Shown one piece after another: positions 3,863-40,266 of a DNA stretch of 64,000 nucleotides. Position numbers and translations under genes: made by a program. Source of the DNA: an uncultured Acidobacteriota bacterium (GTDB lineage Bacteria; Acidobacteriota; Terriglobia; Terriglobales; Acidobacteriaceae); assembly GCA_963799305.1 (NCBI GenBank), contig CAWCWX010000004.1, forward strand, positions 43,320-107,319, in the 5' to 3' direction. The notes beneath the pieces are model-generated. The model was not told the origin of the DNA. It worked only from the letters and a program-made list of their open reading frames with translations, and searched no databases. Position 1 is the first letter of the stretch. The number at the start of each line of letters is the position of its first letter.

Positions 3863-5107
3863 TTGCCCGAGTCCATGGTAATAGCCAACCCAAGTGTCCC
3901 CGTGAGACGACCAGTACAGATCAAGGAAGTTGTTGTCATTGGAGCCGGCCCGTATGGGTTGAGTGCCGCAGCTAATTTGCTTGCCGCTGGCACCGAGCCC
4001 TATGTCATCGGGCAAGCGATGTCCTTCTGGAAAAGAAGTATGCCGGGAGGGATGCTTCTTCGCTCGAAGAATGAAGCCTCAAACATCGCCGCTCCGCAAA
4101 AGCACCTTTCCCTCAAAGCGTACGAAAAAGCAATCCGGCGCAAAATAGCCGACCCCGTGCCGATTGAGGACTTCATCGCCTACGGAGAGTGGTTCCAAAA
4201 ACAAGTCGCTCCAGATCTCGATACTCGCCAGGTGCAGAAGGTCTCCCATGACGGCGGAATTTTTGAGGTGACCTTCGAGGATGGGGACAAACTGCAGGCC
4301 AAGTCCGTGGTATTGGCTCTCGGTATTGGCCCTTTTGCCTATCGGCCCGAGCAGTTTGCCGATATACCCCGGGAACTGGCTCCGCATTCTTCGGACTTCA
4401 ACGAGTTTTCCCGATTCAAGGGGAAACGGGTCGCGGTACTCGGACGAGGTCAGAGCGCACTCGAGTCGGCAGCTCTCCTCCATGAGCACGGTGCCGAGGT
4501 CCAGATTCTCACTCGCGACCCGGCGCTCATCTACCGACCATACGCATGGAAGAAACATATCTTTCGCGCCTTGACTTCAGGCCCTCTCCTTCCACTTTCT
4601 TACCGAGTCATTCCGCCGACTGATCTGGGTGATGTATGGACTTCCCGAAAGATGGCAAAGCCCGAATTATTTCGGCGGCAGACCCCAGAGGATCAAGAGA
4701 AGCTCCTGCGGGCGTGCGCAAGGCCGATCGGCGCCTACTGGCTGGAGCCACGGCTAAAGAATGTACGGCTGAAGACCGGGGTGAGCGTTGGCCGGGCTGC
4801 CATCTCTCGAGATGGCTTGAAGATTGAACTGAGCGATGGAGTCACAGACACTGTGGATTTTGTCGTGTGTGCCACTGGCTATCGGATTGATATTTCGAAA
4901 TACCAGATCGTGGATAGTTCGCTCCAGAGGAAGATCGAGAAGACTTCCCAGGGCTATCCAGTATTGGATATGAAGTTGCAGACAACTGTTCCGGGGCTCT
5001 ACATGGCAGGAGTCATTGGAGAGAAAACCCTAGGGCCGACATTGCGATTCGTAACTGGAACCTCCAATGCTGGTCCGCGGTTAGCGGCATCGATCACTGG
5101 CAAATGA
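3863..5107 (+). CDS. FAD/NAD(P)-binding oxidoreductase, flavin monooxygenase-like (lysine/ornithine N-monooxygenase type fold)
   Basis: 414-aa ORF with two dinucleotide-binding motifs, VVVIGAGPYGLSAA and VAVLGRGQSALESA, plus a C-terminal CATGYRID (ATG motif). Confidence 0.7.
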   Translation: MPESMVIANPSVPVRRPVQIKEVVVIGAGPYGLSAAANLLAAGTEPYVIGQAMSFWKRSMPGGMLLRSKNEASNIAAPQKHLSLKAYEKAIRRKIADPVPIEDFIAYGEWFQKQVAPDLDTRQVQKVSHDGGIFEVTFEDGDKLQAKSVVLALGIGPFAYRPEQFADIPRELAPHSSDFNEFSRFKGKRVAVLGRGQSALESAALLHEHGAEVQILTRDPALIYRPYAWKKHIFRALTSGPLLPLSYRVIPPTDLGDVWTSRKMAKPELFRRQTPEDQEKLLRACARPIGAYWLEPRLKNVRLKTGVSVGRAAISRDGLKIELSDGVTDTVDFVVCATGYRIDISKYQIVDSSLQRKIEKTSQGYPVLDMKLQTTVPGLYMAGVIGEKTLGPTLRFVTGTSNAGPRLAASITGK

Positions 5108-5117
5108 TTCTCCGCCA

Positions 5118-6488
5118 TTGACCACACAGGCACGCAAAAAGAAACGGAGCCCAATGCGAAAGACTAATAAGGATCGACCAGGAGCAATCATTCTAGGTGG
5201 AAATTTTGTCGGGTTGGGAATTGTGAGAAGTCTCGGAGCGCGTGGCATTCCGGTTTGGGTGATCGACGCCGACCGCTCCAAGTCGATCGCTCAGTTTTCC
5301 CGATTCACTACGCGATTCATAGAAACCAAAGAACCAATTGTCGAGGTCCTTCTTCGAGAGGGAAGAGAACATCATCTCGATGGCTGGGTCCTGTTTCCTG
5401 TCGCCGACGAATACGTCGAAATCCTGTCCGACAATCGTCATCTTTTAAGTGCAATCTACCGGGTGACTACCGCGCCCCCCGACGTCACAAAATTTGCGCT
5501 GGACAAGCGGTTGACCTATCGTCGGGCTGATGAATTGGGCATTGCGACTCCCTGGACTTCGGTCGGCGACTCAGTGGCCGAGGTGGAAACAGAAGGCGTT
5601 CCTTATCCAGCAATTCTGAAGCCCGCCGTCAATCATCATTTCTTTCCGCAGACGAATATTAAGGCGCTCCCGGTCGAAAACCGATCGGAGTTGGAACGGG
5701 GATTTGCTCAAATGAGCAAATATATTCCGCCGGATGAGATTCTTGTCCAGGAGCGCATTCCCGGAGGGGGAGAGAATCAGTTTTCCTATTGTGCGGTCTG
5801 CAAAGACGGACGCGCCTATGCGTCGCTGGTGGCGCAGCGCAGGCGGCAATATCCGGTGGATTTCGGCAATGCCAGCACGTTTGTGGAAACAACGAGCCAA
5901 CCCGTCGTCGAAGAAGCCGGCCGACGGTTCCTGGAGAGTATCGGATTTGATGGCATGGCCGAAGTAGAGTTCAAGTTTGATTCGAGAGACGGAAAATACA
6001 AGATTCTCGACGTCAATCCGCGAACCTGGGGTTGGCATACGCTAGGTAAAGCTGCCGGAATGGATTTTTCCTATCTACTCTGGGGTCAGGCGGTAGGGCT
6101 GCCAGTAGTGCCCATTGAGGCAAAGCACAAAGCGGCCTGGATTCGGGAGATCACAGATATCGTGGCCATCGCCAAGTCGCGCAATCGTTGGGCTGACGTC
6201 AAAAGACTGATGACGGCACTCTACAGCGGCAGGTTCACTTCGGCCACCTTCAGCGTTGTGGATCCAGTTCCGTTCTTCGCTGAGTTGGGGTTGTGGATTT
6301 CTTCAGGCGTATCACGACAAAGAAAAGCCAAGGCGTTTCTCCAGCTCAATCCTTCCAGTTCTCAACCTGAGCGATCGGGCGCGCGAGAGGTTTCTGGAGG
6401 GGTTCCCCGTTCTCGGGCTCGGTTCTGGCCGTTTGCGAGTGTTAGGACCACTCGGAAGGCAGCGAAGGTGGTGCAGGCGGGGCCATAG
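5118..6488 (+). CDS. ATP-grasp superfamily carboxylate-amine ligase-like protein
   Basis: 456-aa ORF starting 10 nt after the previous stop. It has an N-terminal GAIILGGNFVGLGIVRSLGARGIPVWVID and ATP-grasp-like strings PAILKPAV, LVQERIPGG and AEVEFKFDSRDGKYKILDVNPR. Confidence 0.75.
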   Translation: MTTQARKKKRSPMRKTNKDRPGAIILGGNFVGLGIVRSLGARGIPVWVIDADRSKSIAQFSRFTTRFIETKEPIVEVLLREGREHHLDGWVLFPVADEYVEILSDNRHLLSAIYRVTTAPPDVTKFALDKRLTYRRADELGIATPWTSVGDSVAEVETEGVPYPAILKPAVNHHFFPQTNIKALPVENRSELERGFAQMSKYIPPDEILVQERIPGGGENQFSYCAVCKDGRAYASLVAQRRRQYPVDFGNASTFVETTSQPVVEEAGRRFLESIGFDGMAEVEFKFDSRDGKYKILDVNPRTWGWHTLGKAAGMDFSYLLWGQAVGLPVVPIEAKHKAAWIREITDIVAIAKSRNRWADVKRLMTALYSGRFTSATFSVVDPVPFFAELGLWISSGVSRQRKAKAFLQLNPSSSQPERSGAREVSGGVPRSRARFWPFASVRTTRKAAKVVQAGP

Positions 6489-6625
6489 TGAGACCCCGCA
6501 AAATGATCTCGTTGTCTTGTTGAAGTCCGGGGCCGGGGAGCGGTTTACAATGGGCAGGTCGGGTCGCGGAACGCGACGGCCATCGACTTTGATCGCGGCC
6601 AGGACTTCTGCAAGGACTGGGCAGG

Positions 6626-7402
6626 ATGAACGTGAGCAGCGTATTTGCGGGTGCCCCGAAGCTGGGCCGTGAAGGTTCGTGGTCACAGCCAGCGTCGCCG
6701 CCGGGTTTCCCGACTCGCCATGTTGACGTCTGGAGAGTGCGTCTTGACGAATCCGCAACACCGGGCTTCGAGAGCAGCATTCTGTCGCCAGATGAGATTG
6801 CGCGCGCCAGCCGATTTCACTTCGAGAAAGATCGAATTCACTTCAGCCGATGCCGCTCGGCACTTCGATTCTTGCTTGCGGACTACCTCGCTATCCCCGC
6901 CGCCGAGATTTGCTTTGAGTATATGGCCGCTGGAAAGCCTCAACTCGCAGCCGGACAGAATCCACGCGCGTTGCACTTCAACGTATCCCACTCGAGCGGC
7001 ATTGCGTTAATCGCGGTTGGCAGTGGGGAACCATTGGGCGTGGACATAGAAAGAATCCGCAGAGATGTGGACACAAATTCGCTGGCCGAGAGATTTTTTT
7101 CGATTCGTGAACGCGCCGGGCTTCGGGCCTTACCGAAGCATCTCCGCGTGCCAGGCTTTTATGCCTGCTGGACGCGCAAGGAAGCTTTCCTCAAGGCGAC
7201 GGGCGACGGACTCTCATTTCCGCTGGCGAATTTCTCCGTCACTGTCCACCCTGAACGCGATCCTGAACTTGAGGAGATCGATGGGAACCTGGAGGCTGGG
7301 AAGCAATGGTTTATGGCAGACCTCAGCGTCGCGGAAGGCTACCGCGCCGCAGTGGCGATCGAGCGCTCCGATTGCCGTTTGGAGACTCATGGATGGAACT
7401 GA
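6626..7402 (+). CDS. Sfp-type 4'-phosphopantetheinyl transferase
   Basis: 258-aa ORF with the PPTase motifs VDVWRVRL, GVDIERIR and WTRKEAFLKATGDG. Confidence 0.85.
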   Translation: MNVSSVFAGAPKLGREGSWSQPASPPGFPTRHVDVWRVRLDESATPGFESSILSPDEIARASRFHFEKDRIHFSRCRSALRFLLADYLAIPAAEICFEYMAAGKPQLAAGQNPRALHFNVSHSSGIALIAVGSGEPLGVDIERIRRDVDTNSLAERFFSIRERAGLRALPKHLRVPGFYACWTRKEAFLKATGDGLSFPLANFSVTVHPERDPELEEIDGNLEAGKQWFMADLSVAEGYRAAVAIERSDCRLETHGWN

Positions 7403-7456: not shown

Positions 7457-8347
7457 ATGAAGCCAAAGCCCTATCATGCCTTCACTGGGGGCTTCGTTAT
7501 CTTGGTAGCGATGTCCGTGATGTTCTGGTGGCGTCCGTTGAGAGACACATTAAGGCTTGCGCTCGAACAAGATGCCTACACTCACATCTTGCTGATTCTC
7601 CCGTTGGGCGCGGCGCTCATCTATTTGGATTTCAAGGCTCTCCGAACCGACCTGCATCCCAGTCCTCGCATCGGCTCGGTGTTGCTGGGTCTGTCGTTGC
7701 TCATCGGTTGTTTTGAAAGGTGGGGGATGGCGGGCGCGTCTGAAGATGTCCGGCTGACGATCGCAATATTTGCGCTCGTGACGTGGTGGATCGCGAGTGT
7801 TAAGGTCTGTTTCGGCGAGCACACTTTTCGGTTCTTGCTGCTTCCATTGTGCTTCTTGTTCTTACTGGTGCCCCTTCCGGAAGTCGTACTGAACGTGATC
7901 GTTCGATCTCTTCAACACGGATCGGCCTGGATGGCCGCATTGCTCTTTCAGGTTGTCGGCGAACCCGTCCAGCGGGATGGAGTGCTAATCTCGCTCACGA
8001 ATTTGGATCTCGAAGTTGCCAAGGAATGTAGCAGCATCAGGTCCAGTTGGATGTTGGTTGTTACCTCAATCGTTCTCGCTGATTTGTTCTTGCGTTCGTG
8101 GCAGAGGAAAGCGCTGCTCATCGCCGCCGCAATTCCACTGTCCGTAATCAAGAATGGCCTGCGGGTGTTTACGATCGGAGAGCTTGGAACTCGAGTAGAC
8201 CCTGGCTTCCTTGATGGGAACCTGCATCATCACGGAGGGATTGTTTTCTTTGGCATTGCGGTGCTTGGCGTCGGCGCCCTGCTATGGGCGCTGCGGAGAA
8301 GCGAGTTGTCGATACGGAGTGAGGCCGACGTATCGGTTGAGACATGA
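7457..8347 (+). CDS. Exosortase family protein (stand-alone, no EpsI domain)
   Basis: 296-aa polytopic membrane ORF starting 54 nt after the PPTase stop. The conserved exosortase residues are in context: Cys in LEVAKECSSIRSS, Arg in IKNGLRVF, His in NLHHHGGIVFF. Confidence 0.85.
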   Translation: MKPKPYHAFTGGFVILVAMSVMFWWRPLRDTLRLALEQDAYTHILLILPLGAALIYLDFKALRTDLHPSPRIGSVLLGLSLLIGCFERWGMAGASEDVRLTIAIFALVTWWIASVKVCFGEHTFRFLLLPLCFLFLLVPLPEVVLNVIVRSLQHGSAWMAALLFQVVGEPVQRDGVLISLTNLDLEVAKECSSIRSSWMLVVTSIVLADLFLRSWQRKALLIAAAIPLSVIKNGLRVFTIGELGTRVDPGFLDGNLHHHGGIVFFGIAVLGVGALLWALRRSELSIRSEADVSVET

Positions 8348-8568
8348 AGGTAGGCGACCATCCAACCCTCTACCACTCACGAAAGAGAGAGCGTGTGTTC
8401 TCATATGCCGTCGAGATTCCGGGCCGGTTTCAGAAATCAGGTTTTCAGGGCTGCGAGTTTTTCCGTCAAGACATGAGCTGCCAATCAAGCCGAAAACAGC
8501 AGAGCGCCAGCGCTCGCGTTTTCGCTTAAATGCATTTGGTACCACCCAAAAATGATGTTCTTATAAAG

Positions 8569-8588
8569 AGTTGCAAGGAATTGCAACT
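8569..8588. promoter_or_regulatory. Candidate operator: perfect palindrome AGTTGCAA-ggaa-TTGCAACT
   Basis: An 8-bp perfect inverted repeat with a 4-nt spacer, in the ~470-nt non-coding gap after the exosortase gene. It uses the same half-site (TTGCAAC) as 16380..16406. Confidence 0.4.
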
Positions 8589-8820
8589 ATGGCGCACCCT
8601 TTGTCGATGTCAGATGGAATCTCGCGACAAACCCTAGATTAATGAGCCTGTTACTCGGCACTGCCGACTCGCAAAGTGTCGAAGATCGTTCAGTTCATGA
8701 AACGGGATCTGTCAATCTTTTGCGGTCCGCAGCGCCACCGACTGGTGTATAATCTCGCCCGCTCGCGACTGCCCTGTTTTTAGGGCATCCACTCGTTCTA
8801 TGAGTCAGGAGGGTTTTAGC

Positions 8821-9066
8821 ATGGGCCACTTTGATCGTCTGCAGTTGATTGGAAGGATTACCTACTACGTCGGCTGGATTGCGCTGATCGCCGGTGGACT
8901 GGTGCAACTTAACATTGCAGCAAAGCTCTTCTTGGCGATCAGTCTAACGAAGCGCAATCTGTTTGAGCTCAGTGCGATTTGCTTCGTGATTTGCATTGCC
9001 TCGGCTCTCCGAGCCCTCATCCTGGCCGGAGACCAGATGTCCGGATCTATGAGAAAAGCTGCGTAG
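8821..9066 (+). CDS. Small membrane protein, unknown function
   Basis: The ORF track gives 8800..9066. The internal ATG 8821 is preceded by AGGAGG (8807-8812) at 8-nt spacing. Two hydrophobic helices are present (ITYYVGWIALIAGGLVQL and LSAICFVICIASALRALIL). I recognised no family. Confidence 0.5.
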   Translation: MGHFDRLQLIGRITYYVGWIALIAGGLVQLNIAAKLFLAISLTKRNLFELSAICFVICIASALRALILAGDQMSGSMRKAA

Positions 9067-9374
9067 GGGATCGCTTGCACCCCGATGGGTGCGAACTGCG
9101 CTACGGCTCCATCATTTATCGACTCCCGTTGCGGGAGTTTCATTGCGTCTACATGGAAGCTCGGCGAGCAGAGCTGATCCTCACTAATAAGGGCTATCCC
9201 TGTCTTGTTGACCAGCCGGGACCCATGCGACGAGGGGGTTAGGGTACCAGTGTAGTCTAGCGAATCTCCCCGACCGCCTTGTCCCCGATGAACAGGCACT
9301 TGTCGGACTGTGAGTAATTGATCGTTATTCCGATACGTTAGTGACTAGATATTCACCTGGTGGCGACATCGCGA

Positions 9375-9406
9375 GAAAAAACAGCCGCCCAGACATCGGG
9401 CGGCTG
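9375..9406 (-). terminator. Rho-independent terminator of the beta-helix gene
   Basis: Stem CAGCCGCCC (9382-9390) pairs with GGGCGGCTG (9398-9406) and is followed on the minus strand by TTTTTTCTC. It lies 24 nt past the stop at 9430. Confidence 0.6.
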
Positions 9407-9429
9407 ATATCGCGCAAAGTTGGTCAAAT

Positions 9430-10353
9430 CTATTCCAGGTCTTTTAGCTTCGAATTGCTGACAGGCTCAACGCAGTTGGTAATACCGCCTGTTCTCGCGA
9501 CAAAGTGAGTGATCGTGAATTGCGGGGCGCAGTTTACGTCCAGACCACTCAAGTTACCCGTTACAGTGGCGCTTTGGAAGCCCGCGAAAGAGGCGTCTTC
9601 CAGATGGACACCGTCACCGCCATTGCCGGTTACTATCGCACTATTCCGAAACGCTACCGTGGAGCCAGCGCGCATTGTTATGCCATTACCGACGCTCCCA
9701 CTCACTGTACCGCCGAGGAGTGACAGGTTGGACGAGGCCGCCAAAATGCCACTCCCGTTGTTGAGAACGCTGGAATTGGAAGCCAGGAAGTAAGACCCTT
9801 CGAGGACGATTCCTTGCGCCCCATTCGTTTGGAAAACGTCATTGCTGCTGGACATTTGCGAACCACCTTCGACCGTTGCGCCGCGGCCCCCGTTCTCGAT
9901 CACATTGCTCTCAAGAAAGGAACGGGAACCACCACTTACCCCTACACCCCCAGCCTCAATCGTGTTGCCAGTCAGGTAACAAACACTTGCGGAGCCACAA
10001 TTCACGCCCCCGACTCCGCCGATGATAGTGAATCCCTGCACGGTCACGCTGTGCGAGTCCTCAACGTCCACGACCGCTAAGGTTCCGTTGGAACGGTCCC
10101 TGATCGAGGCGCCATTCTTGGTGATCAGGGTCAGTCGATCCATGCTTTGAACCACTATGTTCTCTCTGCAACTGCCTGCCACAAATATCGTATTCGGTCC
10201 CTGGGGATTGGCATTCGCCAAAAGTTTCACGGCCTTGTGAATCGTTTCTTTCTTGTCGCAATTCACGGTTAGGTTCGCAGCTTGAGCGCGCTGGCTGGCC
10301 GCCCCAATACACCCCAATAGAATCAACGCAAAAACCCTTGCTCTTTGTCTCAT
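9430..10353 (-). CDS. Secreted right-handed parallel beta-helix repeat protein
   Basis: The ORF track gives 9430..10440. ATG 10353 yields the signal peptide MRQRARVFALILLGCIGAASQRAQA. Gly/Asn/Val-rich coils of ~22 residues repeat through the protein (VTVQGFTIIGG, NTIEAGG, NVIENGG, IVLEGS, VLNNGSG, AIVTGNGGDG). Confidence 0.7.
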   Translation of the reverse strand: MRQRARVFALILLGCIGAASQRAQAANLTVNCDKKETIHKAVKLLANANPQGPNTIFVAGSCRENIVVQSMDRLTLITKNGASIRDRSNGTLAVVDVEDSHSVTVQGFTIIGGVGGVNCGSASVCYLTGNTIEAGGVGVSGGSRSFLESNVIENGGRGATVEGGSQMSSSNDVFQTNGAQGIVLEGSYFLASNSSVLNNGSGILAASSNLSLLGGTVSGSVGNGITMRAGSTVAFRNSAIVTGNGGDGVHLEDASFAGFQSATVTGNLSGLDVNCAPQFTITHFVARTGGITNCVEPVSNSKLKDLE

Positions 10354-10429
10354 GATGTTCACCTCGATGAAGTTCAAATTCCTTTCGCGTTCAATACAGG
10401 CTTTCGTGCCTTCCTTACTCGCAGAGCCG

Positions 10430-11086
10430 CTATGGCACAACCGTGATGGTGACTGTTCCCAGTTCTCCCGTGTCCAAGGTTGCGGTAATTGTGGTGGTCC
10501 CAGTCGCTACAAGTGTGGCGTGTCCACCAAGGTAGGGATAAATGTCCACGATTCCGCCCGGGCTCGCTGTCCAAGTCGCGAGGCCACCGACATCCAGTGT
10601 GCTGCCATCGGGAAAAGTTTCTGTCGCATAGAAGTCGATCTCTGGAGTTGCAGACAGACTGAAGGGGCCCGTCGGAGTGATGTCCAGGACACCCGTCTGC
10701 CCGACGACCACCAGTGTCGAACCCGTTTTCCCGTCCAGAGATACCCTAATCGTGGCCGAACCGATCCCCGTCCCGGTGACCAGCCCCTTATTCACCATTG
10801 CTACGTCCGGGTTCGAAGTACTCCAAGGTGCAGAGCTGGTCACATCTTTGTCAGCGAAGTCGGTGGCGGAGATTTGATATTCAGCGTTCGCACTCACCTG
10901 AACCGTCTTACCCACCGCGATGGAGGGCGCCGAACGAGGTTGCAGAGTGACGGCGACCAGAAACGGATACTTTTGTTGGTTGGTACCCGCGTTGGTGGCG
11001 CTATTGCACGCCACCAGAGTCAGCAGGGGCAGCGGAAGGGCCCCAAACAAAATTAGTGAGAAGATCTTTGCTGCCATGGTCTTCAT
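10430..11086 (-). CDS. Lipoprotein with bacterial Ig-like (Big_2-type) domains
   Basis: 218-aa ORF with the lipobox LTLVAC and Ig-like strings TVQVSANAEY...WSTSNPDVAMVNKGLVTGTGIGSATIRV and ATWTASPGGIV...ATLVATGTTTITA. Confidence 0.75.
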   Translation of the reverse strand: MKTMAAKIFSLILFGALPLPLLTLVACNSATNAGTNQQKYPFLVAVTLQPRSAPSIAVGKTVQVSANAEYQISATDFADKDVTSSAPWSTSNPDVAMVNKGLVTGTGIGSATIRVSLDGKTGSTLVVVGQTGVLDITPTGPFSLSATPEIDFYATETFPDGSTLDVGGLATWTASPGGIVDIYPYLGGHATLVATGTTTITATLDTGELGTVTITVVP

Positions 11087-11165
11087 GGAAGACTCCCTTT
11101 TTGTTTCTTGTGAGGGGATTCTTGCCAGTGATTCAGGCCAGCAAAGATCCCGCGCGGTAGTGGCA

Positions 11166-11709
11166 TTAGTCTGCCGTGATCCGTTGAGCTGTCACGTTGC
11201 CGTTCCCATGACCAATGATGTTCCCGTTGTTGTCATACTGGTCGACGGTAAAAGTCCCCGCGTAACTGTTGTGGCTCCGATCCAGGACCACCTCTTGCCT
11301 CATGTTGAGGGGGCCGATGAAAATCGTCCCAGTGGGGTCCCACTGCATCGCAAAGTGATTGAGCTTGTAGGTAGATCGCCCGGTCCGCTTCCACACACCC
11401 ATGCAGAAATTGCCGGATATCGGCGGGACGCGACGAGTTCAGGATTTCCGTTCCATCGGCGTGCCACTGGGTATACCCCTGATCGATCACGGTGCCGTCG
11501 GGTAATGAGAGCTGCACTTTCCAGAAACCTACGATCGGCGCGCCGACCCAATCGTTCCTGGAAACCGTCTCCAAGGACGTAGGTTTAAGCGAAGCCGACG
11601 GCTTCGGGTTCGAATAAGCACATCCGGTGTTGGACGACTGAGCCAATGCTCCCTGCGCGAGACCGAGAGAAATAACGCCGAGGGCCAGCCATAACTTAGT
11701 GTTCTTCAT
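11166..11709 (-). pseudogene. Secreted protein gene interrupted by a 1-nt frameshift
   Basis: Two overlapping minus ORFs lie in different frames (11233..11805 and 11166..11402). ATG 11709 (GAGGAG upstream) gives the signal peptide MKNTKLWLALGVISLGLAQGALA. The sensible reading switches frame near 11415-11425 (...NSSRPADI then GNFCMGVWKRTG...) and continues to the stop at 11166. Confidence 0.55.
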
Positions 11710-11942
11710 AAATGTTCTCCTCAGAAAATCCGAATTAACCGCCTGCCATTTCGCGACGGCCCGGAGACATTCACACAAGTCAGGTTTGGGCGCAATGCAG
11801 CGCACTTCAATTCCAGTTCAACTTTTCTTCAAGAGACAAGTGGCTGCCAGCACAAGACTTACAGCCGACGGCTTGAAAATATCTTTTGACGCCTATACCG
11901 CCCCCTGTTACTCTCGACGCCAATCGGGTGCAACGGGTCGGT

Positions 11943-13799
11943 ATGCCCACCTCTGTCTCTACCCCACGCCGTATCGCGTTTGGCGACTACGAAGCAGACC
12001 TTCGATCGGGCGAGTTACTAAGAAATGGGAAACGAGTGCGGCTACAGGAACAGCCGTTCCAATTACTCGTGATGCTCTTGGAGCGTCCCGGAGAGCTCGT
12101 CACCCGAGACGAGATTTGCCAAAAACTGTGGTCGGGAGACACATTTGTCGACTTCGATCGCAGTCTGGGAACTGCGGTCAATAAGATTCGCGAGGTTCTG
12201 AACGATTCCGCCACGGAGCCTCGTTTTGTAGAAACCCTGCCTCGGCGGGGTTATCGGTTTATTGCACCGGTCAGGCCAGTTGTGGAGTCCCCGGCGGCGG
12301 ATCGGGAGCCATCTCCCCCACAAGAGAATAAGGTGGGCGATCGGACCCCAGCCGTACGAAGAGTCATTTGGGCTTGTTCTTTGGCCGCGCTGCTGATATC
12401 GGGTTTGGCGGCCTGGGATTTTCTGCGTACTCCTCCCGTAAGGTCGATTGCAGTACTTCCGCTGGTGAGTTCTTCGGACGACCCTGGGCAGCAATACTTT
12501 GCCTACGCCGTAGCCGACGAGCTGATCACCAACCTGGCCCAGATCGGTTCGATTCGGGTCATCTCGCATACCTCAGCCTCGTCGTACACTCACACGCATA
12601 AGACTGCTCCACAGATTGCCCGCGAATTAGGCGTGGATGCCCTGGTCGAAGGATCGGTAGCGCGGTCCGGCAATCGCGTGCGGATGACCGCGCAGCTCAT
12701 CCGCGCCGCTTCGGACAGTCATTTGTGGGCGCAGACGTATGACTTCGATATCAGCGACATTCTCACCGTGCAAGGCAAGCTGGCACGTGAGATCGCCGAC
12801 AGCATTTCTGTTCGCCTTACCCCGCACGAAAGGGTTCAGCTCGCGCGTGACCGTCCCGTAAACCCAGAGGTCGCCCTCCTCTACTTCAGAGGCTCGTATC
12901 TGTTGAGCAGGTCAGACGCCAAGCGAGCCAGAGACCTGTTCAAGCAGGCGACCGACCTAGACCCGAACAGCGCGGAAGCCTGGGCCGGGTTGGCGGATGC
13001 ATTGCACACGATGGGGGTGCAGGGCGACGACGACGCCTTCGAGCCAGCCAAAGAGGCTGCCAAAAGGGCTCTGGATCTCGACCCATCCCAGGCGCAAGCT
13101 CTGATGGCGTTAGGCGCGATTTCCTTCCTTTTTGACTGGAACCCGGCACAATCCGAGGACTACTTCCGGAGGGCGATCGCTTCCCGTCCGAACTACGCGA
13201 TGGCCCACGCTCTCTTCGCCACCACCCTGGCACACCGCGGCAAGACCGAGGAGGCCATCCGGGAGATCAACACGGCTATCGGCCTGGATCCAGTTTCGGT
13301 ACCGATCAACTCATTCGAGTGGCATGTGTATTTCTGTGCGCGCCGTTATGACGACGCCATGCGAGTCATACTGGCGGCAAATGAACTGGATCCCACATTC
13401 GCGCCGGCCTACGGACGCCTCGCCCACAGCTACGATCAAAAAGGCGAGTATCAGAAGGCCATCGACACGCGCGTTCGCGGCCGCATCGTGGGAGGAGAGT
13501 CCCCCGAGACGGCAAACCGCGACGTCGCGGGTCTCCGCGCCGCACTTGCCTCGGGCGGGCACCGCGGGATGTGCCAGTACGAACTGGACCAGATCCCACT
13601 GGCCGAGCGCTACAGCACCGGCCCTGCGGGCTTGTACATGTGCCTGGGCAACAAAGAGGAGGCCCTCACGGCACTGGAAAAGGGTTACCAGAACAGGGAG
13701 CACTATTTGATTGTGTGGATCATCGCCCCAGAGTTTGACGCACTGCGCTCCGAGCCGCGTTTTCAAAAAATTCTGCGGGATCTGGGCCTTTCATCGTGA
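11943..13799 (+). CDS. Membrane-bound winged-helix (OmpR/CadC-type) transcriptional regulator with TolB-N-like and TPR domains
   Basis: The ORF track gives 11886; I chose ATG 11943. The wHTH strings are LLVMLLERPGELVTRDEICQKLW, VNKIREVL and ETLPRRGYRF. There is one TM (VIWACSLAALLISGLAAW), then IAVLPLVSSSDDP..., then TPR-like repeats to the C-terminus. Confidence 0.85.
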   Translation: MPTSVSTPRRIAFGDYEADLRSGELLRNGKRVRLQEQPFQLLVMLLERPGELVTRDEICQKLWSGDTFVDFDRSLGTAVNKIREVLNDSATEPRFVETLPRRGYRFIAPVRPVVESPAADREPSPPQENKVGDRTPAVRRVIWACSLAALLISGLAAWDFLRTPPVRSIAVLPLVSSSDDPGQQYFAYAVADELITNLAQIGSIRVISHTSASSYTHTHKTAPQIARELGVDALVEGSVARSGNRVRMTAQLIRAASDSHLWAQTYDFDISDILTVQGKLAREIADSISVRLTPHERVQLARDRPVNPEVALLYFRGSYLLSRSDAKRARDLFKQATDLDPNSAEAWAGLADALHTMGVQGDDDAFEPAKEAAKRALDLDPSQAQALMALGAISFLFDWNPAQSEDYFRRAIASRPNYAMAHALFATTLAHRGKTEEAIREINTAIGLDPVSVPINSFEWHVYFCARRYDDAMRVILAANELDPTFAPAYGRLAHSYDQKGEYQKAIDTRVRGRIVGGESPETANRDVAGLRAALASGGHRGMCQYELDQIPLAERYSTGPAGLYMCLGNKEEALTALEKGYQNREHYLIVWIIAPEFDALRSEPRFQKILRDLGLSS

Positions 13800-14089
13800 A
13801 GGGCTTCTTGCTCCGCCACCACCTTTGCGCCGGCTGGGCTTGTTTCATCCTCTCGCTGAGTGCATTGGCACAGGTTCAGAATGGCCAAATCACGGGCGTG
13901 ATCTCCGACTCCTCCGGTGCGATCGTGCCTCACGCCAGCGTACACGCGCGCAATCTGGCGATCGGATACGAATCCGATTTTGAAAGCAACGGTTCGGGTA
14001 TCTATACCATTCCGGAATTGATCGTTGGCTCCTACACCATCCGCGTCAGTGTCAGACGGGGACAAGCGTTCTTCAAAACCGCATTCTAG
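13796..14089 (+). pseudogene. N-terminal remnant of a carboxypeptidase-regulatory-domain / TonB-dependent-receptor-like gene
   Basis: 97-aa ORF overlapping the regulator stop (GTGA). It has a signal peptide plus QITGVISDSSGAIVPHASVHARNL...GIYTIPELIVGSYTIRVS. This is the usual opening beta-sandwich of receptor-like proteins longer than 1000 aa, but the ORF stops at 14089 with no plug or barrel following. Confidence 0.45.
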
Positions 14090-14484
14090 ATCAAAAGCCT
14101 ATTGATCAAAAACATAGACTAACCATCGACGGCGATGGGGCGCGAATACTCTGAACGAGGCCCCAACGACGATATTGGGCCGGGTCCCGCGGACGAGCCT
14201 ACGTCGAACCGGCGAACCCACCCAGGGCACCAGTGCACAGGCGGAACCGCCTTGCGGGCGTTATTTTTCGACCGCAATTTCCCATATTGCAACAAAATTA
14301 GCAGGCGAGGACCGGCCCCGCCGGTTCATTATTCCATTCCGTTGCCCAGAAGGCGTATCGTGAAATTAACGACGTTGCCGGCAGACTCTCTAGCACAGGT
14401 GCCATTGGATAGTTCGCTGGAGAGCTCTAGTTCGGAAGGACGGGCAGTCGAAAAAAGATTCCAGGTTCTGACGGAGAGCAGTGC

Positions 14485-15882
14485 ATGAACATTTCAGTGA
14501 TTGGAGCCGGCTATGTCGGCCTGACAACGGCGGCATGCCTGGCGGAAATCGGGCACACGGTCGTGTGCGCCGACAACGATGAGCGCAAGCTCGAGCTCCT
14601 CCGGAATGGCGAGATCCCGTTCTTCGAGCCCCACCTCAAAAAAATCGTAGTGGGCAACACCGGGGCTGGCCGCTTGCGGTTTGAGACCACCGAAGATGCC
14701 GTTACTGGCGCCCAAGCGATTTTCATCTGTGTGGGGACGCCTCCGTTGGAAAACGGCGATGCCGATCTTTCCGCAGTCGCTAACGTGGCGCGCACCATTG
14801 GACAGCGGACCTCCGGCCCCTGCCTGGTCATCGAAAAAAGCACTGTCCCGGTACAGACTGGGCAGCAACTCAAGCGGCAACTCGATCTCTACACTAGCAA
14901 AGGACTGCACTGCCATCTGGTATCGAATCCCGAGTTTTTGAGGGAGGGCTCGGCCATCGAAGACTTCTTCCATCCCGATCGGGTGGTGATTGGCGTAGAA
15001 ACGGAAGAAGCCGCGCGCCAGATGGAAGAAATCTACCGGCCGATTCTCGAACAGAGTTATGCATGCCCGGTGCACGCGCAATGTAGCAACCGCCGTAAGC
15101 CTGCCTGGATCGTGACTGATACCAACTCCTCGGAGTTGATCAAGCACGCTTCCAACTCGTTCCTGGCCATGAAGATTTCCTTCATTAACATGGTGGCCGA
15201 CTTGTGCGAGGTCGTAGGAGCCGACGTCACCAAGATCGCCCTTGGCATGGGGATGGATCCACGCATCGGTCCGGCGTTTCTGAATCCCGGTATCGGCTTT
15301 GGCGGCTTTTGCTTTCCAAAGGACGTCCAGGCCTTTGTCCGCATTGCCGAGAAGGCGGGTTGCGATTTTTCGCTGCTGAAGGAAGTCGAAAAAATTAATA
15401 AGCGTCGTATCGATTTGTTCGTGGAAAAGGTTCGGCGCGAACTTTGGGTCATTCGTGGACAGAAGATTGCCCTATTCGGCCTCGCATTCAAGCCCAATAC
15501 CGATGACATACGCTTTGCACCCGCAATCGAGTTGCTGAGGGTGTTGATTCATGAAGGTGCGATCGTGAGCGCGTATGATCCGCAAGCTGGCGAGAAGGCC
15601 CGGGCGGCTCTACCCGAAGTTCGATATTGCTCCAGTCCGTACGAAGCGGCCCGAGGTGCGGACGCAGTACTGATTGCCACAGAGTGGGAAGAGTTCAGCA
15701 AACTGGATTGGCAGGAACTAAAGAAGCTGGTGGCGCGTCCTCTGATTCTTGACGGCCGGAATATGTTCAGCCCTGCGGTGATGACCGCACAGGGATTTCA
15801 TTACATCAGCATCGGTCGCCCATCGGCCTTTTCGGCCACCGGACAAGAACCCCCCGTTCAGGACGTTGCCGTTTTGAAGTAG
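14485..15882 (+). CDS. ugd: UDP-glucose 6-dehydrogenase (nucleotide-sugar dehydrogenase family)
   Basis: 465-aa ORF with the NAD-binding start MNISVIGAGYVGL and the catalytic Cys context GFGGFCFPKD. Confidence 0.9.
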   Translation: MNISVIGAGYVGLTTAACLAEIGHTVVCADNDERKLELLRNGEIPFFEPHLKKIVVGNTGAGRLRFETTEDAVTGAQAIFICVGTPPLENGDADLSAVANVARTIGQRTSGPCLVIEKSTVPVQTGQQLKRQLDLYTSKGLHCHLVSNPEFLREGSAIEDFFHPDRVVIGVETEEAARQMEEIYRPILEQSYACPVHAQCSNRRKPAWIVTDTNSSELIKHASNSFLAMKISFINMVADLCEVVGADVTKIALGMGMDPRIGPAFLNPGIGFGGFCFPKDVQAFVRIAEKAGCDFSLLKEVEKINKRRIDLFVEKVRRELWVIRGQKIALFGLAFKPNTDDIRFAPAIELLRVLIHEGAIVSAYDPQAGEKARAALPEVRYCSSPYEAARGADAVLIATEWEEFSKLDWQELKKLVARPLILDGRNMFSPAVMTAQGFHYISIGRPSAFSATGQEPPVQDVAVLK

Positions 15883-15953
15883 GCCTGGCGATCAGAGGGG
15901 AAGGAACGCCTCGCACCATCGCCGGAGTTGTCGCGACCTACCACTAACTACAA

Positions 15954-15985
15954 AGCTCGCCTCCGAGTGATTCCGGAGGCGAGCT
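15954..15985. terminator. Hairpin between convergent genes (probable terminator)
   Basis: A perfect 12-bp stem, AGCTCGCCTCCG / CGGAGGCGAGCT, lies between ugd (+) and the PEP-CTERM-like gene (-). On the minus strand it is followed by TTTGTAGTT. Confidence 0.5.
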
Positions 15986-16011
15986 GATTACCTAATTATC
16001 TGAGCGAAAAG

Positions 16012-16248
16012 CTATGATTGATTGGACTGCAGCGAGCGCGAACGGATTACCATCGCACCCAAGCAGGTGATGCCTGCGCCAAGCAGGTAGATGGCAGCCG
16101 ATCCGCCTTCCGGCACTTGCTGACATCGCCGATCGCGTCTCGGATCGCATCCACGGTCTCCGTCTCTACCCGGCTTTCCAGCAAAAGACGCGGGCGCCAA
16201 GCAGAGTAGAAACAAAGCAGCTAAAACTAATTTTCGATTGCTCTTCAT
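16012..16248 (-). CDS. Mini-protein with signal peptide and PEP-CTERM-like sorting domain (VPEGG variant)
   Basis: The ORF track gives 16012..16269; I chose ATG 16248 (GGAG 11 nt upstream). The product is MKSNRKLVLAALFLLCLAPASFA (signal), GKPGRDGDRGCDPRRDRRCQQ (core), then VPEGGS, AAIYLLGAGITCLGAMVI (TM) and RSRS (basic cluster). Confidence 0.65.
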   Translation of the reverse strand: MKSNRKLVLAALFLLCLAPASFAGKPGRDGDRGCDPRRDRRCQQVPEGGSAAIYLLGAGITCLGAMVIRSRSLQSNQS

Positions 16249-16339
16249 CAGGAAGACTCCATACCACAATATTTTTCAACTTAGGGGAGTCCCTGCGGCA
16301 GAGATGCAAATTCGAAATTCGCCCCTGGCAGTTGTATCC

Positions 16340-16368
16340 ATTAGGCCTTTTTTGTAACCCACTGTCAA
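16340..16368 (-). promoter_or_regulatory. Sigma-70-like promoter candidate for the PEP-CTERM-like gene
   Basis: On the minus strand: TTGACA (16368-16363), a 17-nt spacer, then CCTAAT (16345-16340). It sits about 90 nt upstream of ATG 16248. Confidence 0.3.
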
Positions 16369-16379
16369 TATGGTACTTT

Positions 16380-16406
16380 TTGCAACAGTTGCAAGAGAAT
16401 GCAACT
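16380..16406. promoter_or_regulatory. Candidate operator: three TTGCAAC half-sites forming overlapping palindromes
   Basis: TTGCAAC-a-GTTGCAA (16380-16394) overlaps AGTTGCA-agagaa-TGCAACT (16387-16406). The site lies in the divergent region between 16248 (-) and 16539 (+), just upstream of the -35 candidate. Confidence 0.4.
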
Positions 16407-16538
16407 TGAGCGAGGTTTTTCCAAGCCGGAATTTCTTAAGAAGTCAGATAGTATTTGAAATTTTTATAAATCATTGATTATGCTGGCATTACAGCCACAC
16501 GTCGTTCTTGTTGATTGCAGTTCGATCGCGTCAGAACC

Positions 16539-16883
16539 ATGCGAAAGATTCAACAGTACGTCCTTCCGTTCGGTCTTATTGCCTTCGTATTCGCAGTCGC
16601 CCTGATGCGATGCACAGGTCCGGCCAAGCCTCACTATGTGACCCTCACGTGGGACCCTCCTGCCGCCCGCACTGGCGTCACACTCGCGGGATATAACGTC
16701 TACCGCCGTACAGCCGAGAGCAATTCTCCGGTCAAGATCGCCGAGAAAGTAACTGGCCCAACTTATGAAGACCGGCTGGTGAGCAGTGGCCGGAAGTACG
16801 TGTATGTGGTGACTTCAGTGGACACAACCGGCCGCGAAAGCGGGTTTTCGGCACCGGCGTACGCAGAGATTCCCTCACCTTAG
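16539..16883 (+). CDS. Membrane-anchored single FN3-like domain protein
   Basis: The ORF track starts at TTG 16515; I prefer ATG 16539. A hydrophobic N-terminus (YVLPFGLIAFVFAVALMRC) is followed by HYVTLTWDPP...GYNVYRR...YVYVVTSVDTTGRESGFS...AEIPSP. This resembles the C-termini of the 34175..39286 and 39592..40266 products. Confidence 0.7.
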   Translation: MRKIQQYVLPFGLIAFVFAVALMRCTGPAKPHYVTLTWDPPAARTGVTLAGYNVYRRTAESNSPVKIAEKVTGPTYEDRLVSSGRKYVYVVTSVDTTGRESGFSAPAYAEIPSP

Positions 16884-39591: not shown

Positions 39592-40266
39592 TCAGGGCGT
39601 GGGAATCACAGCCGTCACCGACTTGGAGGGAGCGCTCTCGATACCGTCATTGTCAACAGCAGTAACCACGTAGTAATAAGTGCCACCGGCGAGAACCGTC
39701 TCGTCCTTGTAACTCGTACTCGTGTCGAGGCCACCGTTAATGCGGGAATAGTCTTCGTTCGTCTTGCGGTACACGTTGTATCCAACCACTCCCGGGGAAG
39801 CGCTGGCGTTCCATGACAGGTCCACGCTGTGCTGGGGAGCGGAAGTTCCCGTTCCGGTCTCGGACTGGAGCGCGGGAGAATCGTCGGCGCTGCTTGCAAA
39901 GCTGAGAGTGGTGGACGCCGAACCACTCACCTGGGGCGTAAAGGTGACGGTGAAGGAAAGGCTGTGGCCTGCATCTAAGGACGTTGGAAGGGAGACTCCT
40001 TTGAGTCCGAAATCCCCGTTCGTGCCCGTGACTGAGGAAATGTTGACGGTCGCTCCTGTCGCGCGCAGGCTTCCTTGCAGGGATGCGCTCTGGCCGACGA
40101 TGACTTTGCCAAAAGAGAGCGAGGCCGGGCTGACCGACAGGCCTCCATGCGGGGGGCTGTCTCCTCCGCCCTTGCTCTGCAGTCCCTGGCATCCGGTCAA
40201 AGCCACGACGAGCGCAGACACTGACAGAGCTGCGGCCAACCGTGCGCAGGCGGAAGAATTTGTCAA
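39592..40266 (-). CDS. Lipoprotein with one choice-of-anchor-D-like domain and a C-terminal FN3-like domain
   Basis: 224-aa ORF with a TTG start and the lipobox VVALTGC. It reads LSVSPASLSFGKVIVGQSASL...FTVTFTPQVSG, then HSVDLSWNASASPGVVGYNVYRK...YYYVVTAVDNDGIESAPS..AVIPTP. Confidence 0.85.
   Translation of the reverse strand: MTNSSACARLAAALSVSALVVALTGCQGLQSKGGGDSPPHGGLSVSPASLSFGKVIVGQSASLQGSLRATGATVNISSVTGTNGDFGLKGVSLPTSLDAGHSLSFTVTFTPQVSGSASTTLSFASSADDSPALQSETGTGTSAPQHSVDLSWNASASPGVVGYNVYRKTNEDYSRINGGLDTSTSYKDETVLAGGTYYYVVTAVDNDGIESAPSKSVTAVIPTP

Follow-up and report, generated by a model that had tools for sequence, protein, structure and literature searches.

A 78-residue protein with a VPEGGS tail as a probable minimal substrate of an XrtC-like exosortase in uncultured Terriglobales

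We analyzed a 64,000-nucleotide (nt) stretch of contig CAWCWX010000004.1 from an uncultured Acidobacteriota bacterium (the window), which carries on its minus strand a small open reading frame (ORF) of 78 amino acids (aa), hereafter the mini-ORF. The mini-ORF is a real gene, genomically paired with one particular exosortase subfamily, and its product, judging by comparison of sequences, is probably a minimal, nearly cargo-less substrate of this dedicated exosortase. That it could be such a substrate, with PEG in place of PEP in its sorting signal, had been suggested in the first-pass annotation of the window, and comparative genomics supports the suggestion in three ways, namely, by the pairing with the exosortase, by use of the same tail as a suffix on otherwise unrelated proteins, and by column-for-column replacement of PEP-CTERM tails. 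The gene and its parts are:

16012..16248, minus strand: mini-ORF, 78 aa, ATG at 16246-16248, TAG stop at 16012-16014
16257-16260, minus strand: Shine-Dalgarno site GGAG, 8 nt 5' of the ATG; GGAGT is invariant in the alignment of close relatives (A2)
16180-16248, minus strand: predicted signal peptide, aa 1-23, MKSNRKLVLAALFLLCLAPASFA
16117-16179, minus strand: core, aa 24-44, GKPGRDGDRGCDPRRDRRCQQ, variable and hydrophilic
16099-16116, minus strand: VPEGGS motif, aa 45-50
16045-16098, minus strand: hydrophobic stretch, predicted transmembrane (TM) helix of 18 residues, aa 51-68, AAIYLLGAGITCLGAMVI
16015-16044, minus strand: C-terminal end RSRSLQSNQS, i.e., the RSRS basic cluster and six further residues

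Every element of the four-part build described earlier (predicted signal peptide, charged core, VPEGGS, TM helix with RSRS) is present in the ORF, and in essentially all family members the N-terminus reads as a basic n-region followed by a hydrophobic h-region and a c-region of AxA type (SFA, AFA). The alternative start TTG at 16269 is unlikely, since the MKxxxRK N-terminus aligns across homologs and GGAG stands 8 nt before the ATG; GGAG occurs within 20 nt of the start in 56 out of 67 mini-ORF loci.

A search of a 5.8-billion-protein collection yielded 204 homologs of the window protein with E-values down to 1e-38, nearly all of the best 120 of these 204 being 61-92 aa long, and a profile search of 1.84 billion cluster representatives (50% clustering) retrieved 303 representatives at E<=1e-3. 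Thus, the proposed search for homologous mini-ORFs returned more than 200 of them, 65-105 aa long, with VPEGGS kept in 111 of 121 sequences. Among 64 distinct DNA versions of the tail (27 codons), pairwise differences at the first, second, and third codon positions are distributed as 9961:4155:31369, so that third positions take 69% of all differences, and this peak moves as expected in both shifted control frames. The mini-ORF is under purifying selection. The probability that the ORF is spurious and the region non-coding is negligible: although the ORF is short and its homologs are annotated in public sources only as "hypothetical protein," this possibility is refuted by the hundreds of length-conserved homologs together with the third-position excess and its proper shift in both control frames; conservation extends to the Shine-Dalgarno site, and a scan of positions 15850-16600 against Rfam found no RNA family. 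All 72 genome loci come from metagenome-assembled genomes (MAGs) of uncultured Terriglobales/Acidobacteriaceae, for which bog, fen, palsa, or SPRUCE is a frequent label, and metagenomes of peat, bog, fen, palsa, and soil supply most carriers in the data set; Terriglobales is therefore also the most likely source order of the window.

To describe what is conserved, we used the 117 nearest sequences as a close set and 67 distinct mini-ORFs for the species-level comparison of the cores. In the close set, C34, C42, P46, G49, S50, and Y54 are invariant, and V45, E47, G48, L56, G57, A58, G59, T61, C62, G64, A65, R69, and R71 are conserved in at least 90% of sequences. The tail agrees with the criteria for tripartite sorting signals given by Haft (bioRxiv 10.1101/2023.06.07.544157, section 5), whose numbering we keep. 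The basic cluster begins 10 residues before the C-terminus in the window protein, and relatives stop 3-13 residues past the cluster (criterion 1). Multiple mini-ORF copies occur on one contig, chromosome, or MAG (criterion 2): there are two copies on one chromosome or contig in L012/L041, L013/L038, and L037/L049 (L denotes a locus), three in one MAG (L032/L039/L074), and tandem pairs in L022, L031 (5404-6185), and L067. The motif is conserved (criterion 3; P46, G49, and S50 invariant, V45, E47, and G48 in at least 90%), and the strongly hydrophobic, TM-length middle (criterion 4) appears as an uncharged stretch of exactly 18 residues between the motif and the first Arg or Lys in 120 of 121 sequences. 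The two to five basic residues expected at the end (criterion 5) are represented at the weak end of this range by R69 and R71, each conserved in at least 90%, the cluster of the mini family being RSR or RSK.

In contrast to the sorting tail, which is the conserved part, the core varies in sequence and is constant only in its composition (D, R, H, K, P, Q, G, N, C). Its median length is 18 residues and falls to about 8-10 (n = 67), the net charge varies from about -2 to +4, and an example of the shortest cores is DPAKKPVA in L053, where an exosortase gene lies directly beside. At the species level, two Cys are found in 42 cores, one in six, and none in 19. Hence the Cys pair, which appears invariant only in the closest 117 sequences, is not a family-wide feature, and of the two elements whose conservation had been proposed as a check, VPEGG stood the comparison (111/121) and the Cys pair did not (42/67). 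Similarly, the earlier description of a hyper-charged 21-residue core with two Cys holds for the window protein (11 of 21 residues charged, net charge +3, seven residues between Cys34 and Cys42) and fails for the family, where 25 out of 67 members do not have two Cys and cores shrink to about 8-10 residues. The Cys pair as a part of the sorting signal was rejected, as it is missing from many exosortase-adjacent orthologs; in a larger family of about 240 aa, considered below, the pair sits in the cargo domain and is retained in PEP-tailed and PEGG-tailed members alike. His, Asp, and Cys are abundant in many of the mini-ORF cores, e.g., DWDHHHHGCDPDRHRDC and DRDHHHCDRWQQDC (L002, L021, L101, L126; proteins P0086, P0100), and the NCBIfam model "HHHH-motif protein" weakly matches four members. 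These are hints of possible metal binding in part of the mini family; the core of the window protein contains no His.

The profile of the mini-ORF also matches the C-termini of two families of larger proteins, one of 100-145 aa, often Gly/Asn-rich, and one of 215-340 aa, having a globular domain with VGPYVATVNGV...ICDDFADE. Both end in xPEGG[SAT]-YLLLAG..C[FL]GAM-RSRRQ and are otherwise unrelated to the mini-ORF, the profile match being confined to the C-terminal tail and, in most of them, a short second stretch; the three families thus are proteins with only the tail in common (criterion 7). The motif variants VPDGGS and VPESGS also occur. The top match of the profile, P0121 (1791 aa, 16 matched stretches), was rejected, because GGSTVVFSLGAG within Ig-like repeats made it match falsely. 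In the tandem pair of L022 (9995-10905), the second copy has a 42-residue Gly/Asn/Gln-rich core; judging by its sequence, this copy appears to bridge the mini family and the low-complexity VPEGG family of 100-145 aa.

A search with the N-terminal domain of the larger family retrieved homologs in which xPEGGS is replaced by a classical TPEP motif with a TM segment and a basic tail (P0282-P0286 and P0290 of the ~240-aa family), i.e., homologs with a different sorting signal (criterion 8). Three of the four TPEP tails scanned pass TIGR02595, the PEP-CTERM domain model (P0282, P0285, P0290; 17.4-24.1 bits, cutoff 16), and the fourth, P0283, falls just short of it (15.1 bits), whereas PEGG-tailed homologs of the same family do not match this model. 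In the alignment of the ~240-aa family (A3), P-E of the xPEGGS tails and P-E of the TPEP tails occupy the same columns. Because the tails are exchanged in these columns, the comparison shows PEGG as a putative functional substitute for PEP, and the mini-ORF tail is, by its predicted features, a sorting signal of the PEP-CTERM class with PEG for PEP.

Two exosortase genes are encoded in the window:

7457..8347, plus strand: proposed cognate exosortase of an untyped XrtC-like subfamily, 296 aa, assigned by exosortase models and ortholog adjacency
44954-46546, minus strand: XrtD fused to EpsI, the second exosortase, 442 bits vs. cutoff 400

The former passes the general exosortase models (TIGR02602, 111.7 bits, cutoff 105.55; TIGR04178, 57.9 bits, cutoff 23). 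The best typed model for the subfamily is XrtC ("VPDSG-CTERM-specific"), with 163.7 bits for the window enzyme, 174.3 for L001, and 169.6 for L002; the XrtC-like exosortase reaches no subtype cutoff, that of XrtC being 300 bits. Among 37 orthologs, at least 97% retain C191-SSI-R195, N233..R236, and H257..GG, and the window enzyme is 64% identical to that of L002.

An Exosortase_EpsH gene is convergent to the mini-ORF, with gaps of 157, 155, and 106 bp in L001, L078, and L080, respectively, and at 2.4-2.8 kb in L002 and L076. We then took the 60 small VPEGG ORFs that are followed by at least 6 kb of sequence: an XrtC-like exosortase gene comes within 10 kb of 38 of them and within 2 kb of 30, and in 37 out of the 38 paired loci it is downstream and convergent. 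Reciprocally, an independent metagenome scan anchored on the exosortase revealed a small VPEGG ORF (65-105 aa) within 2.5 kb in 30 out of 40 loci with at least 2.5 kb downstream. The mini-ORF thus is genomically paired with one particular exosortase subfamily; published work takes consecutive or nearby genes of enzyme and target, as here, for the mark of a dedicated sorting pair (PMC3237569; bioRxiv 10.1101/2023.06.07.544157). None of nine captured larger VPEGG genes lies near an XrtC-like exosortase, which is the usual pattern of dispersed substrates with one enzyme-adjacent gene. In L078 (10392-11216 and 7179-8039; peptide 86% identical), the exosortase gene beside the mini-ORF is broken into two ORFs (120 and 87 aa); a transposase gene of the rve type and an M13 peptidase, itself split, are found close by. 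Either the system is decaying here, or the assembly contains an error.

It is rather improbable that the tail is processed by XrtD, or by both enzymes, and that the XrtC-like enzyme has another role. XrtD scores above its own cutoff and is an EpsI fusion inside the core exopolysaccharide (EPS) operon, and about ten loci have an XrtD ortholog some 7.3-9 kb away from the mini-ORF, five of these loci being devoid of an XrtC-like gene within 10 kb. However, NCBIfam labels XrtD as VPLPA-CTERM-specific, which VPEGGS does not fit; it is the XrtC-like gene that is tightly paired and convergent (72-2500 bp), whichever of the two genes the search starts from, and the nearest typed relative of the XrtC-like enzyme, XrtC, is described as specific for VPDSG, which is close to VP[ED][GS]GS.

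If the mini-ORF product is a substrate of the XrtC-like exosortase, the following course of events may be envisaged. The protein would be exported by the Sec pathway and cleaved by signal peptidase I after SFA, and the 18-residue helix with the RSR cluster would hold the peptide in the inner membrane with its N-terminus out. The exosortase (7457-8347) would then recognize the near-invariant [V]PEGGS and the highly conserved helix YLLGAG[IL]TC[LF]GAM, and remove the helix. The released hydrophilic peptide, of about 22-27 residues here and down to about 10 in relatives, would be passed to an acceptor in the envelope or in the exopolysaccharide produced by the surrounding locus, by analogy with sortases and archaeosortases. 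Export, topology, cleavage and its position, and the acceptor are what we infer from the sequence and from this analogy. As the core is conserved in composition rather than in sequence, the functional payload is most likely either a short hydrophilic tag carried by the acceptor or the act of processing as such, rather than a specific folded or disulfide-locked peptide. More specifically, and only tentatively, the mini-ORF product may be a cargo-less donor of peptide tags instead of a protein destined for anchoring, the exosortase capping or priming an exopolysaccharide or lipid with a peptide rich in Asp, Arg, His, and Cys, co-regulated with the larger VPEGG proteins via a common upstream box. 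This would yield a peptide-decorated polymer or a lipopeptide whose charge or metal binding could be relevant in acidic peat soils.

Several observations weigh against the assignment of the mini-ORF product as an exosortase substrate. All sources are uncultured MAGs or metagenomes, and the assignment rests on sequence comparison. The basic cluster is modest (R-S-R), and the TM helix is conserved to a far greater degree than is typical of PEP-CTERM helices, as could also be expected of a helix with a stable partner helix. Regarding the enzyme, 22 of the 60 mini-ORF loci have no XrtC-like exosortase within 10 kb, the window exosortase is 7.7 kb away from the mini-ORF rather than adjacent, and the presence of XrtD in the window and near the mini-ORF in about ten loci makes the enzyme assignment non-exclusive. 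The window protein matches no model of Pfam and NCBIfam even at E<=10, and the 117 relatives produce only scattered sub-threshold matches, to 21 families at E<=10.

The conserved helix could also mean that the mini-protein stays uncleaved, as a stable single-pass accessory or regulatory subunit, or as a decoy in the exosortase groove, tuning the processing of the larger VPEGG proteins. This is consistent with a helix rich in small and polar packing residues (Y54, G57, G59, T61, C62, G64), with essentially no cargo and a core whose sequence is not conserved, and with the near one-to-one pairing with the enzyme while the larger VPEGG genes are dispersed. Still, we deem it unlikely, as the larger proteins that do bear cargo have nearly the same helix (YLLLAG..C[FL]GAM), so that its conservation reflects recognition by the enzyme in general; moreover, PEGGS, not needed for mere docking, is the most conserved element, and adjacency of the target and the enzyme is documented for dedicated sorting systems (PMC3237569).

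The results with curated models, for which NCBIfam release 20.0 was used, bear on a further alternative. No model of this release matches the window protein or its relatives above threshold, and neither the window protein nor mini-ORF relatives reach the curated cutoff of the PEP-CTERM domain (TIGR02595 / PF07589). Scoring of the C-terminus with sorting-domain models, recommended by the first-pass annotation, thus gave the very outcome that it had named, taken literally, as a refutation. TIGR04200 ("PExPT-CTERM protein, target of XrtJ") weakly matches 11 of the 117 relatives (best E = 0.004), and these matches were not reproduced on ten hand-picked members; three of the 117 match a PEP-CTERM family model, one matches TIGR02595 (E=0.19), and no VPDSG-CTERM model is among the 21 families. 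The best PEGG tail on TIGR02595, that of a larger protein, aligns in the correct place with model positions 1-23 of 24 and scores 13 bits vs. the cutoff of 16; hence, the tail appears to be PEP-CTERM-like while falling outside the class as it is curated. An ordinary small bitopic membrane protein or secreted-peptide precursor with a coincidentally similar tail, processed, if at all, by another protease, would agree with the absence of a curated sorting model at threshold and with the scatter of weak matches over unrelated models of small proteins (LPXTG, HHHH-motif, PsbM). We regard this as very unlikely, since it leaves unexplained the bidirectional pairing with the exosortase, the tail as a suffix on unrelated families, and the column-for-column replacement of genuine PEP-CTERM tails.

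The proposed system can be compared with known ones. As in the PEP-CTERM/exosortase system of XrtA/EpsH (PMC1569441), there is a predicted N-terminal signal peptide and a C-terminal tail with a motif, TM helix, and basic cluster, an exosortase with conserved Cys, Arg, and His, and an EPS locus with a chain-length determinant, ATPase, tyrosine kinase, and TIGR03013 priming transferase. Unlike it, the motif is P-E-G-G-S rather than P-E-P, the tails are below the TIGR02595 cutoff, and the XrtC-like exosortase fails the XrtA cutoff (138 vs. 208 bits). VPDSG-CTERM/XrtC (TIGR04151) resembles it in that XrtC is the best typed model (164-174 bits, near full length) and the motif family V-P-[ED]-[SG]-G-S overlaps VPDSG; on the other hand, the score is far under the cutoff of 300, no VPDSG-CTERM model is matched, and all carriers are Terriglobales, whereas XrtC was defined in Verrucomicrobia. 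According to these scores, the XrtC-like exosortase seems to be a sister subfamily of XrtC, not its member. The XrtJ/PExPT-CTERM system (TIGR04199/TIGR04200), whose target is small, also has the target gene beside that of the sorting enzyme, and the 11 weak TIGR04200 matches belong here; the motif differs, and the XrtC-like exosortase scores 27 bits on the XrtJ model vs. the cutoff of 200. The target also adjoins the sorting enzyme in the case of rhombosortase and its single adjacent GlyGly-CTERM gene (PMC3237569). Unlike one-enzyme one-target systems, VPEGG is not strictly one-to-one, as the larger proteins are dispersed and several genomes have two to three mini-ORFs. Archaeosortase ArtA, without which neither the C-terminal helix is removed nor a lipid anchor attached (bioRxiv 10.1101/2023.06.07.544157), comes from a homologous enzyme family and sets a mechanistic precedent; ArtA/PGF-CTERM differs in being archaeal, in its motif, and in having large S-layer glycoproteins as substrates.

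No paper in the library searched mentions VPEGG. New here are the VPEGG-CTERM signal, the exosortase subfamily sister to XrtC, the near-cargo-less, enzyme-adjacent probable substrate, and the cis-regulatory box, all of them in uncultured Terriglobales only. The concept as such is already established, this being one more pairing of an exosortase with a signal, and the carriers are uncultured. For bacterial exosortases, the cleavage site, the acceptor, and whether transpeptidation occurs in one step are still open (bioRxiv 10.1101/2023.06.07.544157). With a predicted mature peptide of about 10-27 residues, the protein would be about the smallest natural exosortase substrate, suited to intact-mass spectrometry of the C-terminal adduct, and such a minimal substrate would make the chemistry of exosortases, which are widespread in environmental bacteria, directly testable. 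The VPEGG-CTERM variant, the cognate exosortase subfamily, and the cis-regulatory box, all currently unannotated, could be added to annotation, and the system may provide a handle on how Terriglobales of peat and soil build their surface and matrix.

The regulatory elements of the mini-ORF, together with a second copy of the box and the ORF following it, are:

15954..15985, no strand: GC-rich hairpin terminator between convergent ugd and mini-ORF, 12-13 bp, with a T-rich minus-strand run
16284..16290, minus strand: element ACTCCCC of the 5' untranslated region, invariant in A2, complementary to the Shine-Dalgarno region
16340..16368, minus strand: candidate sigma-70-type promoter, -35 TTGACA at 16363-16368, 17-nt spacer, -10 CCTAAT at 16340-16345
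16380..16405, no strand: "VPEGG box," dyad GTTGCA-N6-TGCAAC (GTTGCAAGAGAATGCAAC) at 16388-16405 and a third half-site TTGCAA at 16380-16385
8570..8587, no strand: second exact copy of the dyad (GTTGCAAGGAATTGCAAC), 222 nt past the exosortase stop and 224 nt before the 84-aa ORF
8812-9066, plus strand: 84-aa ORF with two TM segments and a good Shine-Dalgarno site, without a VPEGG tail

The mini-ORF is a single-gene unit with a conserved promoter and a dyad box common to other VPEGG-tailed genes. In this it is like PEP-CTERM genes, which form single-gene operons having long upstream regions with a conserved box (PMC1569441). Of 67 upstream regions, 44 contain the exact dyad (0 expected), located some 155-170 nt 5' of the ATG. 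Alignment with close relatives reveals a conserved block in the divergent intergenic region of 266 bp, and the consensus of the module reads GTTGCAttttc.TGCAACTgT.GCAAAAA.TATCATCTTGACA. The exact dyad occurs once per ~20-kb locus and, in the loci examined, just 5' of a VPEGG-tailed gene. The dyad also precedes larger VPEGG genes, exactly in L062, L070, and L072, and with one mismatch in L068, L073, and L075, and so is a box of the VPEGG gene class, not of the mini-ORF alone. The palindromic operator reported earlier is therefore real and strongly conserved but not exclusive to the mini-ORF. The VPEGG box is a probable, sequence-predicted transcription-factor site centered about 64 nt upstream of the presumed transcription start, and the position of its center near -64 suggests that it may be bound by an activator.

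A generic sigma-70 scan called no promoter on the mini-ORF strand, which did not bear out the promoter-like elements of the first-pass annotation; conservation across upstream regions did. TTGACA is present in 62 out of 67 of them vs. 4.7 expected; in 36 of 44 loci the -35 box keeps a constant distance of 37 nt from the dyad, with a -10 box resembling TyAAAT/CTAAT after a further 17-18 nt. This makes 16340..16368 a probable sigma-70-type promoter. A sigma-54 promoter was rejected, the best GG-N10-GC scores being equal to those of shuffled controls (mean 5.25 vs. 5.21). Both the dyad GTTGCA-N6-TGCAAC and the sigma-70-like promoter set the mini-ORF apart from proteobacterial PEP-CTERM genes with their PrsR/sigma-54 site. 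ACTCCCC is found about 50 nt (approximately 40-60 nt) before the ATG in 33 of 67 loci, with 0.9 expected. Pairing of ACTCC with GGAGT, which would sequester the Shine-Dalgarno site, is seen in the minimum-free-energy fold and was rejected, as the fold is not better than shuffles (z = -1.26). The hairpin terminator, also claimed earlier, is there and is common to ugd and the mini-ORF; it has 13 pairs (nine GC) in one analysis, and 12-nt arms with 100% complementarity in the other.

As for the second copy of the dyad, orthologs of the 84-aa two-TM ORF downstream of it occur in L076, L038, L014/L015, L034, and L021, and this ORF may be another member of the box regulon. A relic mini-ORF between the exosortase stop and this dyad (8347-8587) was rejected, no PEGG-containing frame being found there.

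Other features of the window are:

14485..15882, plus strand: ugd (UDP-glucose 6-dehydrogenase), convergent neighbor of the mini-ORF with a terminator in common
16515..16883, plus strand: fn3 mini-protein (Pfam fn3; 122 aa from TTG) with an N-terminal membrane anchor, divergent from the mini-ORF
9430-10440: secreted beta-helix protein, in the extra segment
11886-13799: membrane-bound wHTH-TPR regulator, in the extra segment
13796-14089: 97-aa CarboxypepD_reg ORF, truncated fragment, in the extra segment
46957-56045, plus strand: PEP-CTERM-type EPS core operon

The set constant across loci comprises the mini-ORF, the XrtC-like exosortase, and the divergent TM-anchored fn3 mini-protein, often with UDP-GlcNAc 2-epimerase. 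The most constant neighbor is the fn3 ortholog, divergent and about 250-400 bp upstream of the mini-ORF in 47 out of 75 loci, and present in 17 out of 26 exosortase-anchored loci; the region with the box is common to both genes. In the window it is probably 114 aa long, starting from ATG at 16539. The window exosortase has no EpsI domain, and the fn3 mini-protein could, as a suggestion from sequence and context, be an EpsI-like accessory factor for the XrtC-like exosortase. Similar fn3 domains are found on the minus strand at 34184-34426, at the end of a 1703-aa ORF (34175-39286), and at 39601-39843, at the end of a 224-aa ORF (39592-40266).

Adjacency to ugd, mentioned in the earlier description, is seen in the window and in the closest relative L076 (peptide 87% identical) and does not extend to the family; ugd as a functional partner was rejected on the grounds that it recurs only in L076. 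The gene order in L076 is fn3 <- / mini -> / <- ugd <- 81-aa <- exosortase <- PPTase, and in the window the genes are ordered likewise, except for about 5.5 kb extra between the 84-aa ORF and ugd. The 97-aa CarboxypepD_reg ORF in this extra segment resembles the remaining N-terminus of a far larger protein of the TonB-dependent type, and so hints at the scar of a rearrangement in 8348-14484.

The rest of the window is a full exosortase-type EPS locus, whose core operon encodes a sigma-54 activator, a chain-length determinant, a PEP-CTERM-system ATPase, a tyrosine autokinase, and the TIGR03013 priming transferase; the activator is 330 aa long, and the model match starts only at about residue 115 of the protein. 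A motif scan of the window found no classical PEP-CTERM or VPLPA-tailed ORF.

The window exosortase is preceded by genes of a Lys/Orn-oxygenase-like flavoprotein, an ATP-grasp ligase, and a HetI-type PPTase (3863-7402, plus strand), and no carrier protein was identified alongside them. These genes were rejected as a family-wide operon, since PPTase recurs in eight out of 26 loci (in five immediately upstream), and the flavoprotein with ATP-grasp, in one out of 26. The flavoprotein and ATP-grasp are fused into one gene in L076 (14000-17580) and L078 (19270-20237).

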